A stretch of 64,000 nucleotides of DNA, from positions 96,001 to 160,000 of IMG/VR virus record IMGVR_UViG_3300025237_000001; one strand, given 5' to 3'. This DNA is from a virus. Below, one piece after another: positions 1 through 64,000 of the stretch. Below the pieces are notes generated by a model. The model searched no databases. It had not been told where the DNA came from and saw nothing but the letters and a program-made list of their open reading frames with translations. A program made the translations under genes and the position numbers. Each line of letters opens with the position of its first letter. Positions within the stretch are counted from its first letter, which is position 1.

Positions 1-999
1 AATGCAATCACAGTTAATACGGGGGCAGTAACAGCACTCGCATCAAGTGCTTTAGCAATGAATGAAGTTGTTTTAGTAGGTGCAGCAGTTGCAGACCTTG
101 CTGGTAATACTGCCGCAATAACTATCATTGCTAATTCTGATATAGCAGTGACTATTGTTGGAGGTTCTACAATTGCAATTGATAATTTAACGACTGAAGC
201 AAGAACAATAGTTACAGGTGTACCTTCAGCTTTAGCAATCCTTGGTGCTAATCATGATGGATGGCAATATATACTTGATACGTCTACAACATTGAATAAT
301 AACATATTTAATTTACTTATTGCTTTTGGTGGGTTAGATGCTACTGTCTTTGGAGATGTAGCTTCAATATTTGCTGATGCAACTGCATCAGCAGCAGTTG
401 CATCCAGTCACCCCGCAATGCAAGCAGTTGTAGCAGAGGCAAACAAAACTAAATATCCTGGAACAACAGGTGCAATGGATAAAATTATTGCTAGTGATAA
501 CCTCGCAACAGTACTGGCTTCAAGTGTAGCTATAGCTCATATTACAGAAGATGAAGATATCATGGATGTATTAATAGCTAATGAAACTGCATTCCCACTA
601 TTGTTAGATAGTTCAGCAGCAAAAGCAGCAATATTTACATCGTCAACATTAACAACAACTATGTTAACTGCTGAGTCTACATCTTTAGCAACTGTTCAAG
701 GATTAGCACAATCTACAACGATTGTCAATGACGCTCTTATAGGTACATTTAAAACTTCTGGTGTAGCTGGAAATATGATACTTCTTACGGGAGTAATGGG
801 GTCAATAGTTGCAACAACGTTGGCTAACACATTTAAAGGAGATACTCAAGCAGAATTTACTATTGGTATTCCAGGAACTTCTTTATCAAGTGGTCCAGTA
901 AATATAAATCTACCGTTTACTAACATGGTTTGGGATATTGCGAGTATAGCGGCAACAGCCGCTGGTAATGTAACAATTACATATGTAGATTTTAATTAA
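1..999 (+). CDS. Ala/Thr/Ser-rich putative virion (fibre/appendage) protein, 5'-truncated by the window edge
   Basis: Frame is open from position 1 (NAITVNTGAVTALASSALAM...). Recurring A-S-x-x-AM helical repeats and a beta-rich C-terminus. Lies next to the tail genes. Confidence 0.5.
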   Translation, partial: NAITVNTGAVTALASSALAMNEVVLVGAAVADLAGNTAAITIIANSDIAVTIVGGSTIAIDNLTTEARTIVTGVPSALAILGANHDGWQYILDTSTTLNNNIFNLLIAFGGLDATVFGDVASIFADATASAAVASSHPAMQAVVAEANKTKYPGTTGAMDKIIASDNLATVLASSVAIAHITEDEDIMDVLIANETAFPLLLDSSAAKAAIFTSSTLTTTMLTAESTSLATVQGLAQSTTIVNDALIGTFKTSGVAGNMILLTGVMGSIVATTLANTFKGDTQAEFTIGIPGTSLSSGPVNINLPFTNMVWDIASIAATAAGNVTITYVDFN

Positions 1000-58980: not shown

Positions 58981-59011
58981 TTGGTTTTATGGTAAAAATT
59001 AAGTATAATTG
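58980..59011 (+). promoter_or_regulatory. Bacteroidota-type promoter for the exonuclease/SbcCD operon
   Basis: TTTG (58980-58983), 20 nt, TATAATTG (59004-59011). Confidence 0.6.
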
Positions 59012-59027
59012 CAATTAAAGTAAATTA

Positions 59028-60002
59028 ATGGTAAATAAAAAAGAGCTAATTAAAATTGGTGAAGAAATAAGAGCACTGATTGAGGTTAAGCAAAAGGAGT
59101 TAAATTTGACATTTGTTGAAGATACTCACACTTACCACATTAAAACGTTAGAGGGGAAAATGACAACAAAATTCCCTTCGGTGTCAACAGTAATTAAACA
59201 GTTTTATAATGAATTCCCAGATTTAGAGAAATCATTACAGATGTCACAGAATGATATCCATGACCAAGATAGATTACTTAAACAATGGAGAGCCGAAGCT
59301 GATTATGCTAATTCTAAGGGGTCTAGAGTGCATTATCTATTAGAAATGGACCTACTGGCTCAATATGGAAGTTACAAAAAGGTTAGGAAACCTTTTTTTG
59401 AATGTGATGAGACTCAGATAAATGATGGTAATGCCATGATTGATGCTGGACACAAGTTTATCAACTTAATGCATCGTAGAGGTGCAATATTATTGGATAC
59501 TGAAATTGTGTTGGGTAGTAGTGAATTAAAATATACTGGACAACCAGATAAGGTTTGGCTTATGTTCAATAAGAAAGGTGAAGTAGGTTTTGTAATTACA
59601 GATTGGAAAACCAATAAAGCAAAAAACTTTGAGGTACATCACTATACAGACCCTATGTTATATCCGTTTAAAGAATATATGGATACAGCTTTAGCGCATT
59701 ATAGAATTCAATTACCTTTATACGGTAGATTGATTTTAGACATGTTAAAGGGAACTAAGTATGAGGATATGAAAATGTTTGGATGTGTAATTGTACATTT
59801 AACATCTGAAGGTAAATTCAAGGAACTTAGAGTTCCAGCGAAATTTATAAACACTGTAATGACAATGCCACCATTACCAAGAATTGATGAAGTCTGGCAA
59901 AAGAAAAAGGATGACATCATCGCAGAAGAAAGAAGAGTAGAGGAATTAATTAATCCAACACCACCTGTCATAAAGACTGGTGAATGGTGGGAGAACCATT
60001 AA
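59028..60002 (+). CDS. PD-(D/E)xK exonuclease
   Basis: FVEDTHTY, PSVSTVIK, GSRVHYLLE, GQPDKVW, ITDWKT and YRIQLPLY. Confidence 0.8.
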   Translation: MVNKKELIKIGEEIRALIEVKQKELNLTFVEDTHTYHIKTLEGKMTTKFPSVSTVIKQFYNEFPDLEKSLQMSQNDIHDQDRLLKQWRAEADYANSKGSRVHYLLEMDLLAQYGSYKKVRKPFFECDETQINDGNAMIDAGHKFINLMHRRGAILLDTEIVLGSSELKYTGQPDKVWLMFNKKGEVGFVITDWKTNKAKNFEVHHYTDPMLYPFKEYMDTALAHYRIQLPLYGRLILDMLKGTKYEDMKMFGCVIVHLTSEGKFKELRVPAKFINTVMTMPPLPRIDEVWQKKKDDIIAEERRVEELINPTPPVIKTGEWWENH

Positions 60003-60014
60003 AAAAAAAAAGAT

Positions 60015-60203
60015 ATGAAAAAAATGATAGGAAAGGGTTTAGATATAATGTTAACATTATTAAGTATGATAGCATTTTGTGTAGTAATGTTTGTTTGGGT
60101 ATTTTTTCCAGAGAAGTTCGTTGAGTTACCTACAAACGATTTAATTATATTCGTATTGATGATAATAATTGGGCTTATGCCTGAAAAAAAAATATTCACA
60201 TGA
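60015..60203 (+). CDS. Small two-TM membrane protein
   Basis: Two hydrophobic helices in 62 aa; ATGA overlap with the next gene. Confidence 0.6.
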   Translation: MKKMIGKGLDIMLTLLSMIAFCVVMFVWVFFPEKFVELPTNDLIIFVLMIIIGLMPEKKIFT

Positions 60204-60511
60204 TAAAGATATTAAAATCAACATTAAAAGCGAAGTCTTACGGACAAAACGTTTTAGATTTACAAAAAAATGAAATTATGATGAGTTCAAAATTAATGGA
60301 CGCTCTTGATATTATAGAAGGTGAAATAGTTGAAGTTAGGTCACCTAGTGGTGTATTTAACGCTTATATAACAAAAGGTACTGAAGATAGACTTGAATTA
60401 CTATTTGGTGGTATTGTATGTGGTAATGTAATAATAAGTTCATATAAATATATGAACCAAGAATCGGCTTTATTAAATAAACCGATAAGATTAGTAAAAT
60501 ATAATGATTAA
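60200..60511 (+). CDS. Aspartate 1-decarboxylase (PanD)-like protein, predicted catalytically inactive
   Basis: Colinear with PanD from memory: LKS, LMDALDIIEGEIVEV, FNAYITKG, GNVIISSYKYMNQESALLNKP. The G24-S25 cleavage site reads N24-E25. Confidence 0.65.
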   Translation: MIKILKSTLKAKSYGQNVLDLQKNEIMMSSKLMDALDIIEGEIVEVRSPSGVFNAYITKGTEDRLELLFGGIVCGNVIISSYKYMNQESALLNKPIRLVKYND

Positions 60512-61316
60512 AAAAATAATACATGTTGCTGATATTCACATTAGAACGTTCAGAATGCATGAAGAATACAAAGAAATATTTCAAATACTAATAGACGAAG
60601 CAAAAGAATATTGTAAAGATTATAAACATGAAGAAATAAGAATTGCTATTGTAGGTGATTTAGTACATCAGAAGATTACAATTTCAAATGAACAACTAAT
60701 TCTTAGCTGTTGGTTCTTAAACGAACTGTCTAAGATTGGTAAAGTGGTTATCATAGCTGGTAATCATGATTTATTAGAGAATAATAAAGATAGGGTTGAT
60801 AGTATATCACCAATGATTCAATTATTGGATAATCCTAACATAGCTTATTACAAAGAGAGTACCTGTTATGAGGACCACAATATTGTTTGGTGTAACTATT
60901 CAATATTTGAACATAATGAAAGACCCAATATTGAAGATGGTAGAAAACAATATGGTGATGATAAGACCTATATTGGGTTGTATCACGCACCACTAGTAGG
61001 AGCGTCAACCGACATAGGATATCATTTTGATGAAGGAACTTCGTTAGAGATATTTGAAGGTTGTGATATGGTTCTATTAGGTGACATTCACAAAAGACAA
61101 CATTTCGAACATAAAGGAATACCAATAGCGTACCCATCGTCACTTATTCAACAGAATTTTGGTGAATCGGTAGGTAAACATGGTTATTTGATATGGGATG
61201 TTGAATCTAGAACATGCGTTGAAAGGGATATCACCAATAGACATGGATTTTACCAATTCAAAATAAAATCGTTGGATGATATCGAAAACGGAACTGAAAA
61301 ATTAACAAATGGATAA
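60504..61316 (+). CDS. sbcD: SbcD/Mre11-like metallophosphoesterase (gp47-like)
   Basis: HVADIH, GDLVH, AGNHD, LYH and LGDIHK motifs. Confidence 0.88.
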   Translation: MIKKIIHVADIHIRTFRMHEEYKEIFQILIDEAKEYCKDYKHEEIRIAIVGDLVHQKITISNEQLILSCWFLNELSKIGKVVIIAGNHDLLENNKDRVDSISPMIQLLDNPNIAYYKESTCYEDHNIVWCNYSIFEHNERPNIEDGRKQYGDDKTYIGLYHAPLVGASTDIGYHFDEGTSLEIFEGCDMVLLGDIHKRQHFEHKGIPIAYPSSLIQQNFGESVGKHGYLIWDVESRTCVERDITNRHGFYQFKIKSLDDIENGTEKLTNG

Positions 61317-61692
61317 ACAAACAGAAATTTACGACAAATGGCGTATCATTGGTATGCTAGAGGGTTTAATATTTAAAAACCAAGTCAAATTAGCCAATGC
61401 GTATGAGCATATGGCAAAAATCTTATTAGCAGACGCTGAAAAAGAGATAAGATTTTATAATGATGATATTGACACAATAGGTTTCCCAGTTTTACGAAGG
61501 TATTTCGGGTTAAATCTAGGTATTGAACTAACCAATGAACTTGTTGAGGACATCCTTAAAGAATTACATAAATACCAAACATCGGATTTCTACACAGAAG
61601 GAAAGTTAAAGTTAAATTTAATTTTTGATTCAGGGTTGGATATGGAAGCGATTTTATTAAAGGTTTTTTGTGAAGATATATACGGACAATAA
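61309..61692 (+). CDS. Hypothetical protein resembling the N-terminal segment of T4-type major capsid proteins
   Basis: KW-x-x-x-GMLEGL...LA-x-x-YE...FPVLRRYF pattern. Confidence 0.45.
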   Translation: MDKQTEIYDKWRIIGMLEGLIFKNQVKLANAYEHMAKILLADAEKEIRFYNDDIDTIGFPVLRRYFGLNLGIELTNELVEDILKELHKYQTSDFYTEGKLKLNLIFDSGLDMEAILLKVFCEDIYGQ

Positions 61693-61693
61693 T

Positions 61694-61900
61694 ATGGAAA
61701 AATTAGAATTTAATGAATGGTTAGATAAGTATTTTGAGAAAGACGATGACCACGCTTATTACACATGGACATATACAGATGACGGTATGCACCCTAATGA
61801 TAAATCAAGATGGAAAGATTTAGATTTATTAGAAGAATTCGAAAGGTATTTTTTTAATAACAATGAAAGTCATGTAGGATTAGATGAATACGATGAATAA
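61694..61900 (+). CDS. Small acidic hypothetical protein
   Basis: Likely start is ATG 61694 (MEKLEFNEW). Confidence 0.55.
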   Translation: MEKLEFNEWLDKYFEKDDDHAYYTWTYTDDGMHPNDKSRWKDLDLLEEFERYFFNNNESHVGLDEYDE

Positions 61901-62030
61901 TATGGAAGACTCAAAAGAAATAGTGGCTATGATTCACACGTTGGTACAAAAGTACCCAAATGATTATAAACTTGGGGAAGCAGTTCGAGAATATATTAAT
62001 TGCGACATAAATCACGACAGTTTGTCGTGA
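61893..62030 (+). CDS. Small hypothetical protein with YPNDxxLG motif (45 aa), not in the ORF track
   Basis: My translation: MNNMEDSKEIVAMIHTLVQKYPNDYKLGEAVREYINCDINHDSLS; TGA stop. Confidence 0.5.
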   Translation: MNNMEDSKEIVAMIHTLVQKYPNDYKLGEAVREYINCDINHDSLS

Positions 62031-62051
62031 TAAAATAAAACATAAAAAGTT

Positions 62052-62636
62052 ATGATAACAGGTACAACAATAAACGTGGATGAAACTCTTAAAGAGTTTA
62101 ATAAGAGGGTTAATAAGATGCTCGATGAAAAGATAGAGGCTTCGAATAAATTGAACATTGAAATTCGTATATTGAGATGGGAAAAACGTCTTACTAAGAA
62201 ACAATATAAAAAGTACTTGAGAGGTAAATTACAACCATTTGATGCTTTAGATGTTACGGATATCATAAGAGAGCGAGAGTTTAGATATAGTTTTGCTCAG
62301 GGTGAAATTGTTAAAATTGATTGGAAGATGTTAAGTTCATCGCAACAAGAGTTTTTTATTGAATTAAAAGATATGCACGCTGTGGTAACAAAATGCTTCT
62401 CAGATTTACACGCTTTCGGTCAAGGTTCAGCTTATGACCATGATTTAGAATTTGCAAATGGTGAATTTTCACCAAAAAAACCATTTGTGTACGACTTATT
62501 CACATTTAAACCAGTAGGTAGAGTTCCAACATATGCAATCATACCAATTAGTGAGAAAGAACAAAAGTATTATATTAAGGAATTTAAAAAAAGAAAACCC
62601 AATCAAAAATTGTGGTGGTATAATAATGATTTATAA
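62052..62636 (+). CDS. Hypothetical protein
   Basis: 194-aa ORF on the dominant strand within the operon. Confidence 0.6.
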   Translation: MITGTTINVDETLKEFNKRVNKMLDEKIEASNKLNIEIRILRWEKRLTKKQYKKYLRGKLQPFDALDVTDIIREREFRYSFAQGEIVKIDWKMLSSSQQEFFIELKDMHAVVTKCFSDLHAFGQGSAYDHDLEFANGEFSPKKPFVYDLFTFKPVGRVPTYAIIPISEKEQKYYIKEFKKRKPNQKLWWYNNDL

Positions 62637-63117
62637 AAAACTTTTACAAGAAATAGAAGACTATTGTAATCTTAATGAGATTGAGGTCACTAAAACGTTA
62701 AATGAGGCACTTAGAAGTGGGTTTACCATACTTAAGTTCGGAATACCTAATAGTACGTCAAATCCTATTGAAAAGACTGTAGAAGTCATTAAAGAGGTTA
62801 TTAAAGAAGTGGAAGTCATCAAAGAAGTAGAAATTGAGAAGATAGTAGAAAGAATAGTAGAAGTTCCTGTCGATAAGATTGTGGAGAAAAGTATTAATAT
62901 CAATGTTGATGGTCACAATGTAAATTACATGGATTACATAGAACAACTAAACACTAAGGTTAGTGCTTTGGAAGTTAATAATAAAAAGATAGGTAAAAAA
63001 TTATCTGACAGTACTTTAAAAAGTGGTGGGCTGGAAAAAGATTTATTAGAATGTAAGATAAAACTTACAGCTTGCCTTAAAGATAATAGTGGCTTCGACT
63101 TATACGGAGAAAGATAA
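62626..63117 (+). CDS. Protein with EVIKEV low-complexity repeats and coiled coil
   Basis: Likely start is ATG 62626. IEKTVEVIKEVIKEVEVIKEVEIEKIVERIVEVPVDKIVEK. Confidence 0.6.
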   Translation: MIYKKLLQEIEDYCNLNEIEVTKTLNEALRSGFTILKFGIPNSTSNPIEKTVEVIKEVIKEVEVIKEVEIEKIVERIVEVPVDKIVEKSININVDGHNVNYMDYIEQLNTKVSALEVNNKKIGKKLSDSTLKSGGLEKDLLECKIKLTACLKDNSGFDLYGER

Positions 63118-64000
63118 TGGATACAAATATAACAATACCGAAGTACGCCAAAATAAAAGTATATTGGGACGACAGACCTGAGAATTATTCTAGGCAAGCC
63201 AAATTAAATGTACGAAATTACTTCAGCACCAAGTACGGTGTTAATAAAAATAATATAAACGTAATATATAGACCAATTAAGATTGGTAAGAATGGTGAGG
63301 TGATTCAAATTAGCGGTGCTGGTATTGAGAACATTCTTGACCGTAATTACCAAGTTGAATTAATGAAGAAATGGTTTGAGCGTGAAGGTAAAGATATTGA
63401 TTTCAAACGTATATTAGACTTAGATAGGAAAGTTAATGATTCATTAGATAACCAAGCTGAGATTGTGAACAACCGTTCATGGGAATTGAAGTGGTTATAC
63501 GTTGATAACTTTCTATGCTTTGGTGAGAAAAACTTCGCATCATTTGGTAACTTGAATGGATTAAATATTATAACCTCGGAACCACCGAATCAAGGTGGTA
63601 AGACGACTTTTAGTGTGGATGCGATTAAATTCCTATTATTTGGTAAGACTACTAAAACCGATAAGAACGAGCAAATTTTTAACACCTATACTGATAAGAA
63701 CGAGTTGGTTGTTAGAGGTATGATAGAAATCGATGGTGAGGAAATGATAGTTGAAAGATTATTAACTCGTAAAGAGAAAAGAAGTGGTGGTTGGAATGTA
63801 GTTAATAAAGTGAATTATTATAAGATACTCCCTGATGGTGAGGAACTGTTAATGAATGATGTAGATTCTAAACAAACTGGTGAGGTTATTAAAAGTAACA
63901 TTGGAAGTGAAAATGATTTTGATATTACAATCTTAGCAACAGCTAGAAACTTAGAAGATTTAATTGATGCTAAACCGACTGAGAGTGGTAGGTTATTAAC
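63117..64000 (+). CDS. sbcC: SbcC/Rad50-like ATPase (gp46-like), 3'-truncated by the window edge
   Basis: My translation from ATG 63117 gives LKWLYVDNFLCFG and Walker A NQGGKTT; the frame stays open to the end of the window. Confidence 0.85.
   Translation, partial: MDTNITIPKYAKIKVYWDDRPENYSRQAKLNVRNYFSTKYGVNKNNINVIYRPIKIGKNGEVIQISGAGIENILDRNYQVELMKKWFEREGKDIDFKRILDLDRKVNDSLDNQAEIVNNRSWELKWLYVDNFLCFGEKNFASFGNLNGLNIITSEPPNQGGKTTFSVDAIKFLLFGKTTKTDKNEQIFNTYTDKNELVVRGMIEIDGEEMIVERLLTRKEKRSGGWNVVNKVNYYKILPDGEELLMNDVDSKQTGEVIKSNIGSENDFDITILATARNLEDLIDAKPTESGRLL

Follow-up and report, generated by a model that had tools for sequence, protein, structure and literature searches.

A PanD-derived protein without the self-cleavage serine at the exonuclease-sbcD junction of giant marine phages

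The nearest known relative of the protein described here is the bacterial aspartate 1-decarboxylase PanD (EC 4.1.1.11; PF02261, TIGR00223; structures 3OUG, 2C45 and 1PPY), especially that of the Bacteroidota. PanD is a homotetramer with its active sites at the contacts between subunits, and it cleaves itself at Gly24-Ser25; the N-to-O acyl shift that generates the pyruvoyl group depends on Ser25. Auxiliary metabolic genes in phages are usually read as active enzymes, whereas in the gene considered below the chemistry has been dismantled and the fold kept under selection. A functional analogue is the trypanosomatid AdoMetDC prozyme, a dead, unprocessed paralogue that regulates a pyruvoyl decarboxylase (PMC5201418). 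The likeness, which is one of function only, lies in the retention under selection of a dead, non-self-cleaving relative of a pyruvoyl decarboxylase; the prozyme differs in fold and lineage, and it has a demonstrated active partner (PMC5201418), whereas that of the phage protein is hypothetical. No paper on a PanD pseudoenzyme was found in the literature, and nothing in PHROGs, PADLOC (defence and anti-defence systems), NCBIfam or cultured phages covers the family of the phage protein, hereafter type 1.

The gene lies in a 64,000-nt stretch of viral DNA (the window; positions 96,001 to 160,000 of IMG/VR record IMGVR_UViG_3300025237_000001), and the record itself is a 197-kb fragment (CheckV 56%). 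The gene occupies positions 60200-60511 of the plus strand and encodes 103 aa (11.6 kDa, pI 7.8), the ORF listing agreeing with an earlier reading made from the sequence without database searches (the sequence-only reading). Its ATG start overlaps, as ATGA, the stop codon of a gene for a 62-aa mini-protein (60015-60203, plus strand) with two hydrophobic helices, as judged by hydropathy, and, in its loop, the conserved motif E(I/L)PTNDLI. On the upstream flank stands an exonuclease gene of the phrog_298 type (59028-60002, plus strand; PHROG E 5e-21), and downstream the 270 codons of an SbcD/Mre11-like phosphoesterase gene (60504-61316, plus strand; Metallophos 2.9e-9, phrog_100 1e-24) begin within the last 8 nt of the PanD-like gene. 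The gene order around it runs primase, ART-PolyVal protein, exonuclease and SbcD-like protein, followed by five small ORFs and by an SbcC/Rad50-like ATPase, of which the N-terminal part (63117-63998, plus strand; phrog_77 and AAA_23 matches) falls within the window and the remainder beyond it. The five small ORFs (127, 76, 48, 194 and 194 aa) fill the sbcD-sbcC gap at 61309-63117, where relatives have one to three. Third-position GC content is 15% in the PanD-like gene and 23-30% in the flanking genes. The sequence-only reading had assigned the ORF to a nuclease operon driven by a host promoter. The nuclease context is upheld by the Pfam and PHROG identification of the exonuclease, SbcD-like and SbcC-like genes; the host promoter is not, sigma-70-like consensus sites numbering 20 against 26 expected from shuffled sequences. 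A promoter candidate read by hand, TTGGTT-17-TATAAT at approximately 58981-59009, is located upstream of the exonuclease gene.

The PanD-like ORF is a full-length PanD homologue, and more than a generic double-psi barrel. Taken singly, the window protein yields only sub-threshold Pfam matches, to Molydop_binding (PF01568; E 8e-4, residues 21-56), Asp_decarbox (PF02261; E 0.013, residues 25-95) and CDC48_N (PF02359; E 0.15); its PF02261 score is 15.8 bits, below the cut-off of 25, and it does not match the TIGR00223 equivalog model. Two exhaustive protein searches identified nine relatives, all metagenomic and 46-78% identical, which together with the window protein make up the 10 proteins of type 1. 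Nine of these 10 match PF02261 weakly (best E 2.9e-4), and one carries the pipeline label "aspartate 1-decarboxylase", which serves as a warning for annotation. When the type-1 family profile was run against 177,635 PDB sequences, the seven best matches were all PanD, led by Francisella PanD 3OUG (E 4.4e-5, residues 2-84), and no molybdopterin-binding or Cdc48 chain appeared up to E 10. Against an alignment of 78 distinct Bacteroidota PanDs, taken from genome contigs, hhalign aligned the family over 100 columns (probability 97.6%, E 3e-12). In the reverse direction, an HMM of these 78 PanDs searched against all ORFs of the 197-kb record recovered the PanD-like ORF as its sole significant match (E 5.7e-6). 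Outside the window, a weak PF02261 match at G000:C1:22582-22713 (locus L008; E 0.044, profile positions 13-56), inside a 381-aa ORF, is probably due to chance or to another barrel domain.

The resemblance to PanD extends to length class and to specific motifs (LKS, LMDA..IEGE.V, x-x-Y and IISSY...KP), at an overall identity of 21-26%. The sequence-only reading had drawn its comparison from the E. coli sequence, and the alignments made with HMMER and hhalign to real PanD sequences place the same elements in register: the LMDA..IEGE.V block, the F-x-x-Y motif (F53..Y56, corresponding to PanD 55..58) and the C-terminal VII(S)SY..M..E.A...KP pattern. With the type-1 HMM, Bacteroidota PanDs reach 40-43 bits and PDB PanDs from other phyla 14-27 bits, and on this basis the window protein is assigned a Bacteroidota-type PanD ancestor; the Bacteroidota are likely also the host phylum of the phage. 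Differences from PanD are equally clear. The gene sits in a phage nuclease operon and not beside panB or panC, its product falls below the Pfam and NCBIfam cut-offs, and, as detailed below, most of the residues required for catalysis are gone.

The predicted structure agrees with the profile comparisons. The AF2 model of the window protein (pLDDT 84.5) retrieved PanD for all of its top 18 Foldseek matches (TM 0.67-0.71, with generic barrels at about 0.52), and in an all-against-all VIA-align comparison PanD scored Z 11.0 over 91 residues at 2.2 A, no other barrel exceeding 9.1 (about 75 residues). According to the model, the protein retains the PanD-type double-psi beta-barrel, including the N-terminal beta chain; model and alignment both contain the PanD-specific LKS strand and keep the full-length topology. 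The molybdopterin-binding (PF01568) and Cdc48/VAT N-domain (PF02359) barrels do show a likeness, in the form of the weak first-psi-loop matches given above and fold Z values of 8-9, but these matches span approximately 36-75 residues, against 91-100 for PanD, and both the N-terminal strand and the C-terminal motif of PanD are absent from these barrels. PF01568, in particular, reaches 19.8 bits against a cut-off of 26.8, over residues 21-56 only, and is matched weakly by six of the 10 type-1 members. Among 101-aa stand-alone PF01568 proteins there are Atlas feature look-alikes of the window protein, which are noted as a lead only. A BFVD fold search returned generic RNA-polymerase and UFD1 barrels only. 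The outcome that would have spoken against a PanD origin, namely no PanD match or a generic barrel alone, was hence not seen at the profile, profile-profile or fold level.

The alignment to PanD pairs the Gly24-Ser25 self-cleavage and pyruvoyl site with Asn24-Glu25 (codons AAT GAA, 60269-60274, plus strand; HMMER and hhalign), as the sequence-only reading had proposed, and bears out its further claim that the equivalents of Lys9 and Arg54 are missing (replaced by T8 and V52). The substitution is not peculiar to the window: Asn24-Glu25 is invariant in 10 of 10 type-1 members, and Gly-Ser in 78 of 78 Bacteroidota PanDs. Ten positions are invariant or nearly so in those 78 PanDs (K9, H11, Y22, G24, S25, D29, R54, T57, Y58 and N72), and nine of them have been lost in type 1, with K9 replaced by T, H11 by K, F or S, Y22 by Q, G24 by N, S25 by E, D29 by S, T57 by A and N72 by G, and with R54 variable; Y58, which is Y56 in the window protein, is the sole survivor. 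The NGAAA loop is also shortened relative to PanD. Because Ser25 is absent and the catalytic residues have been lost, the window protein cannot be a canonical pyruvoyl enzyme, and the data support its identification as a PanD-derived pseudoenzyme that is unable to self-cleave. The sequence-only reading is therefore sustained as regards PanD ancestry and the loss of self-cleavage, and not borne out as regards the host promoter.

Loss of catalysis has not been accompanied by loss of the gene. Reading frames are intact in all copies, comprising 10 type-1 sequences and five of a second subfamily described below, dN/dS of the type-1 gene is approximately 0.25-0.35 for unsaturated pairs, and 21 columns of the type-1 alignment are invariant among sequences of down to 46% identity. 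By these measures the PanD-like gene is under purifying selection and not decaying, even though its rate of evolution is about double that of SbcD. Conservation at the former active site, on the other hand, is only weakly informative, because the type-1 family is shallow (10 sequences of at least 46% identity).

Examination of SbcD relatives, and not PanD-like queries, uncovered a second, very divergent subfamily of PanD-like sequences (type 2; P0013-P0015, L045-L047), which is new here and which its residues mark as likewise dead. Type 2 is represented by five IMG/VR loci and by several Tara and JGI contigs, and its 104-116 aa proteins are encoded in exactly the same exonuclease-sbcD slot, in sister phages of the same clade. 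Their N-terminus (MKIEVLKSKI) is like that of Bacteroidota PanD, to which the N-terminal half is 40-54% identical, and they pass the PF02261 cut-off (30-38 bits), scoring 16-21 bits on TIGR00223 against a cut-off of 106. The cleavage site reads Gly-Val, with G24 kept and S25 replaced by V; K9 is likewise retained, and H11, Y22, R54, T57, Y58 and N72 are absent. Type 2 hence shares with the window protein its genomic position, a partner mini-protein and the loss of Ser25 and most catalytic residues, but differs from it in keeping K9 and G24 and in exceeding the Pfam threshold. The two are about 22-30% identical, and a direct profile comparison matches them over only 22 columns (hhalign score 23), compared with scores of 70 and 93 for the two subfamilies against PanD, so that, by profile, both subfamilies lie far nearer to genuine PanD than to one another. 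The type-2 AF2 model (pLDDT 55) is too poor for use. No relatives emerged from pattern scans of IMG/VR that used the type-1 alignment or the combined one, and tblastn and megablast searches of 50,697 phage records yielded a single partial match, to type 2, and none to type 1.

The distribution of both subfamilies is narrow in position and patchy in occurrence. Type-1 genes were found between exonuclease and sbcD in all six metagenomic loci, and both types were seen only at this junction, in marine phages of 350-380 kb. Among 80 IMG/VR loci chosen for an SbcD that is 47-81% identical, however, 75 lack a PanD-like gene. In those 75 loci the exonuclease gene overlaps or abuts sbcD, or unrelated small ORFs intervene; in most relatives the exonuclease abuts sbcD directly, with the same 8-nt overlap, which hence is a feature of the sbcD start shared by any gene that precedes it. 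In more distant phages the SbcDC protein is fused and nothing PanD-like is found upstream. The absence from 75 of 80 loci, together with the fused SbcDC of distant phages, indicates that the junction is an insertion hot spot, and that same absence argues that the PanD-like gene is optional cargo and not an obligate partner of the nuclease; the consistent co-occurrence with nuclease genes by which an accessory subunit could be recognized is not observed. A search of the junction for a duplicated sequence that would mark the insertion revealed none. Other occupants of the junction include a 186-aa ClpP-family protease (Pfam 5e-28; L029:3432-3992 and L030) in two sister phages of about 270-370 kb, and unrelated ORFs of 58-103 aa with no family match. 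The fused sbcD-sbcC genes, encoding 1066-1310 aa, occur in Mel-JY01, pT24 and a 735-kb megaphage.

Sequence identities across the junction are discordant. SbcD is 68-85% identical across loci. Relative to locus L092, the window shows 75% identity in the exonuclease, 81% in SbcD and about 27-30% in the PanD-like protein; relative to L001, the corresponding values are 28%, 85% and 68%. Such mosaic identities are typical of exchangeable cargo. The exonuclease itself exists in at least two alleles, one present in the window (59028-60002) and in L092 (2800-3783) and the other in L001 (5035-5817) and L002 (5222-6004), so that the window copy is 75% identical to that of L092 and 25-29% identical to those of L001, L002, L005 and L006. 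The coexistence of alleles at 25-29% identity with SbcD at 81-85% suggests that alleles have been shuffled within the recombination module. A third type of exonuclease N-terminus (MDLLLELNKFDH...) is found in more distant loci.

In several loci the mini-protein gene immediately precedes the PanD-like gene. HMM matches to it were obtained in the window, L001, L092, L093, L095, L014 and L015, all of which carry a PanD-like gene of either type, and it is absent by the same HMM from the 75 IMG/VR loci without a PanD-like gene. Some loci with a PanD-like gene do not have the mini-protein, which is nonetheless probably, on its co-occurrence, a cassette partner of the PanD-like gene. Its association with both types argues for a single ancestral cassette that later diverged, over two independent captures. 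Joint capture of the mini-protein gene with panD was considered and rejected, as no homologue of it stands beside bacterial panD; in the bacterial panD loci examined, the ORF directly upstream is of 285-295 aa, the size of panC.

An intact panD does occur within the phage clade. Complete relative genomes are 353-380 kb long, with terminal repeats, and one of them, the 360-kb sister phage G003, carries an intact panD (P0016; L180:8229-8576, minus strand, equivalent to G003:C1:140237-140575) approximately 77 kb from sbcD. P0016 shares with the window protein the phage clade and an ultimate Bacteroidota-type source, but differs from it in keeping every catalytic residue (PF02261 162 bits). It is 71-80% identical to PanDs on marine contigs of 1.1-1.5 Mb, which indicates recent capture, and it bears no special closeness to the dead copies, scoring 33.5 bits with their family HMM against 40-43 for bacterial PanDs. 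The genes downstream of it (115 and 336 aa) have no Pfam match. G003 is the sole one of five complete sister genomes with an intact panD, and it lacks the dead copy; the other four contain no member of the PanD family. The 197-kb record contains no intact panD, but it ends before the position syntenic to that of the G003 gene, and the searchable contigs that carry the dead gene measure at most 59 kb. A metagenome scan with the intact PanD as query returned mostly cellular PanDs.

The sequence-only reading had left several roles open, among them poisoning of host PanD tetramers and reuse of the barrel for another function. The last of these fits the comparative data best, and poisoning, like binding of a PanD regulator, is disfavoured by them. 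Under the reading tentatively adopted here, which is held at somewhat less than even confidence, a PanD of the Bacteroidota type would have been captured and its scaffold exapted as an uncleaved, dead double-psi beta-barrel, forming part of an optional cassette, often with the two-helix and presumably membrane-bound mini-protein, in the exonuclease-sbcD hot spot of 350-380 kb marine phages. The protein would act by binding, not catalysis, and the binding surface would probably be the old active-site cleft in its remodelled form, where T8, N24, E25, N54, A55, Y56 and G70 are conserved within type 1; it would target some factor of host or phage that is not PanD, in an accessory role of the host takeover or phage-host conflict type and not as a core nuclease subunit. 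What stands against this reading is the constant position of the gene and its translational coupling to sbcD, which could speak for a nuclease-related role, with the barrel docking on SbcD, on the exonuclease or on DNA ends and modulating nuclease activity. In every locus with enough context, and for both types, the gene lies between exonuclease and sbcD, in most loci its end runs 1-8 nt into sbcD, and it is kept while the adjoining small ORFs vary. Nevertheless, the 8-nt overlap is a property of the sbcD start with any upstream gene, the 47-81% identical SbcDs of 75 of the 80 loci and the fused SbcDCs of distant phages do without the protein, its rate of change is twice that of SbcD, and types 1 and 2 are nearly unalignable while SbcD stays about 81% identical. 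Neither type, furthermore, has a clear nucleic-acid-binding signature, type 1 having a pI of 7.8 and type 2 being mildly acidic by residue count, and a nuclease subunit is accordingly considered unlikely. An action on PanD itself, as a poison subunit or as a prozyme- or antizyme-like regulator of the host or phage enzyme that would control beta-alanine supply, is considered less likely still. Such a regulator would belong to a phage clade in which panD has been captured repeatedly, and it would switch beta-alanine production in the course of infection. The ancestry of the protein in a PanD of the likely host phylum, the retention of full-length topology down to the LKS strand, the loss of Ser25 in two lineages that both keep the scaffold and the intact panD of G003 are all compatible with it, and the AdoMetDC prozyme offers a precedent by analogy (PMC5201418). 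Yet identity to PanD is low, the two types have drifted much further apart than would be expected of proteins fitted to a conserved PanD interface, given the strong conservation of the 78 Bacteroidota PanDs, and, in the genomes covered, an intact gene was seen in G003, which lacks the dead copy, but none in the 197-kb fragment of the window's phage, and neither kind in four complete genomes. The benefit of a mimic directed at PanD is also not obvious, since tetramers assembled beforehand are stable and a short infection is buffered by existing CoA pools.

The remaining alternatives concern the site itself and the fate of the gene. The invariance of N24-E25 throughout type 1, in what is the strained self-cleavage loop of PanD, and the conservation of several former active-site positions in new identities might be taken to reflect new chemistry, either an Asn24-driven backbone cleavage by a succinimide route or a non-pyruvoyl enzyme using the N24/E25/Y56 cluster. 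The Gly-Val of type 2 is incompatible with such chemistry as a family-wide property, the residues that bind substrate have been lost along with part of the NGAAA loop, and to our knowledge there is no precedent for it in the double-psi-barrel PanD fold; this alternative is hence regarded as very improbable. Equally remote is the notion of a functionless, decaying relic of a captured panD. Such a relic would account for the loss of catalytic residues, the patchy distribution and a GC3 lower than that of the neighbouring genes, but not for 15 intact frames, a dN/dS of about 0.25-0.35, the invariant columns of the type-1 alignment or a confidently predicted AF2 fold. Exaptation as a binder outside both PanD and the nuclease, to return to the preferred reading, would make the occurrence of a host-phylum enzyme fold, in two very different versions at one slot, a clean case of enzyme-to-binder conversion in a virus, and the cassette with its membrane mini-protein would mark an accessory system, so far unexplored, in giant marine phages of Bacteroidota. 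Were PanD the target after all, no earlier viral pseudoenzyme would be known to regulate the supply of coenzyme A precursors.

Two further observations were made in the course of the comparison. Two small IMG/VR contigs (L186:1001-1345 and L187) encode a phage PanD with an intact Gly-Ser site in which His11-Arg12 is replaced (KLQEV), and this may be a separate phage PanD lineage. Finally, in the sbcD genes of three type-2 loci (L045:4001-5191, L046 and L047) the SbcD match is approximately 380 nt longer than the gene, and in L051 and L052 (4001-4910) it exceeds the gene by about 100 nt, the ORF ending in both groups at about 227-231 aa, which suggests an insertion, intron-like or of some other element, inside sbcD.
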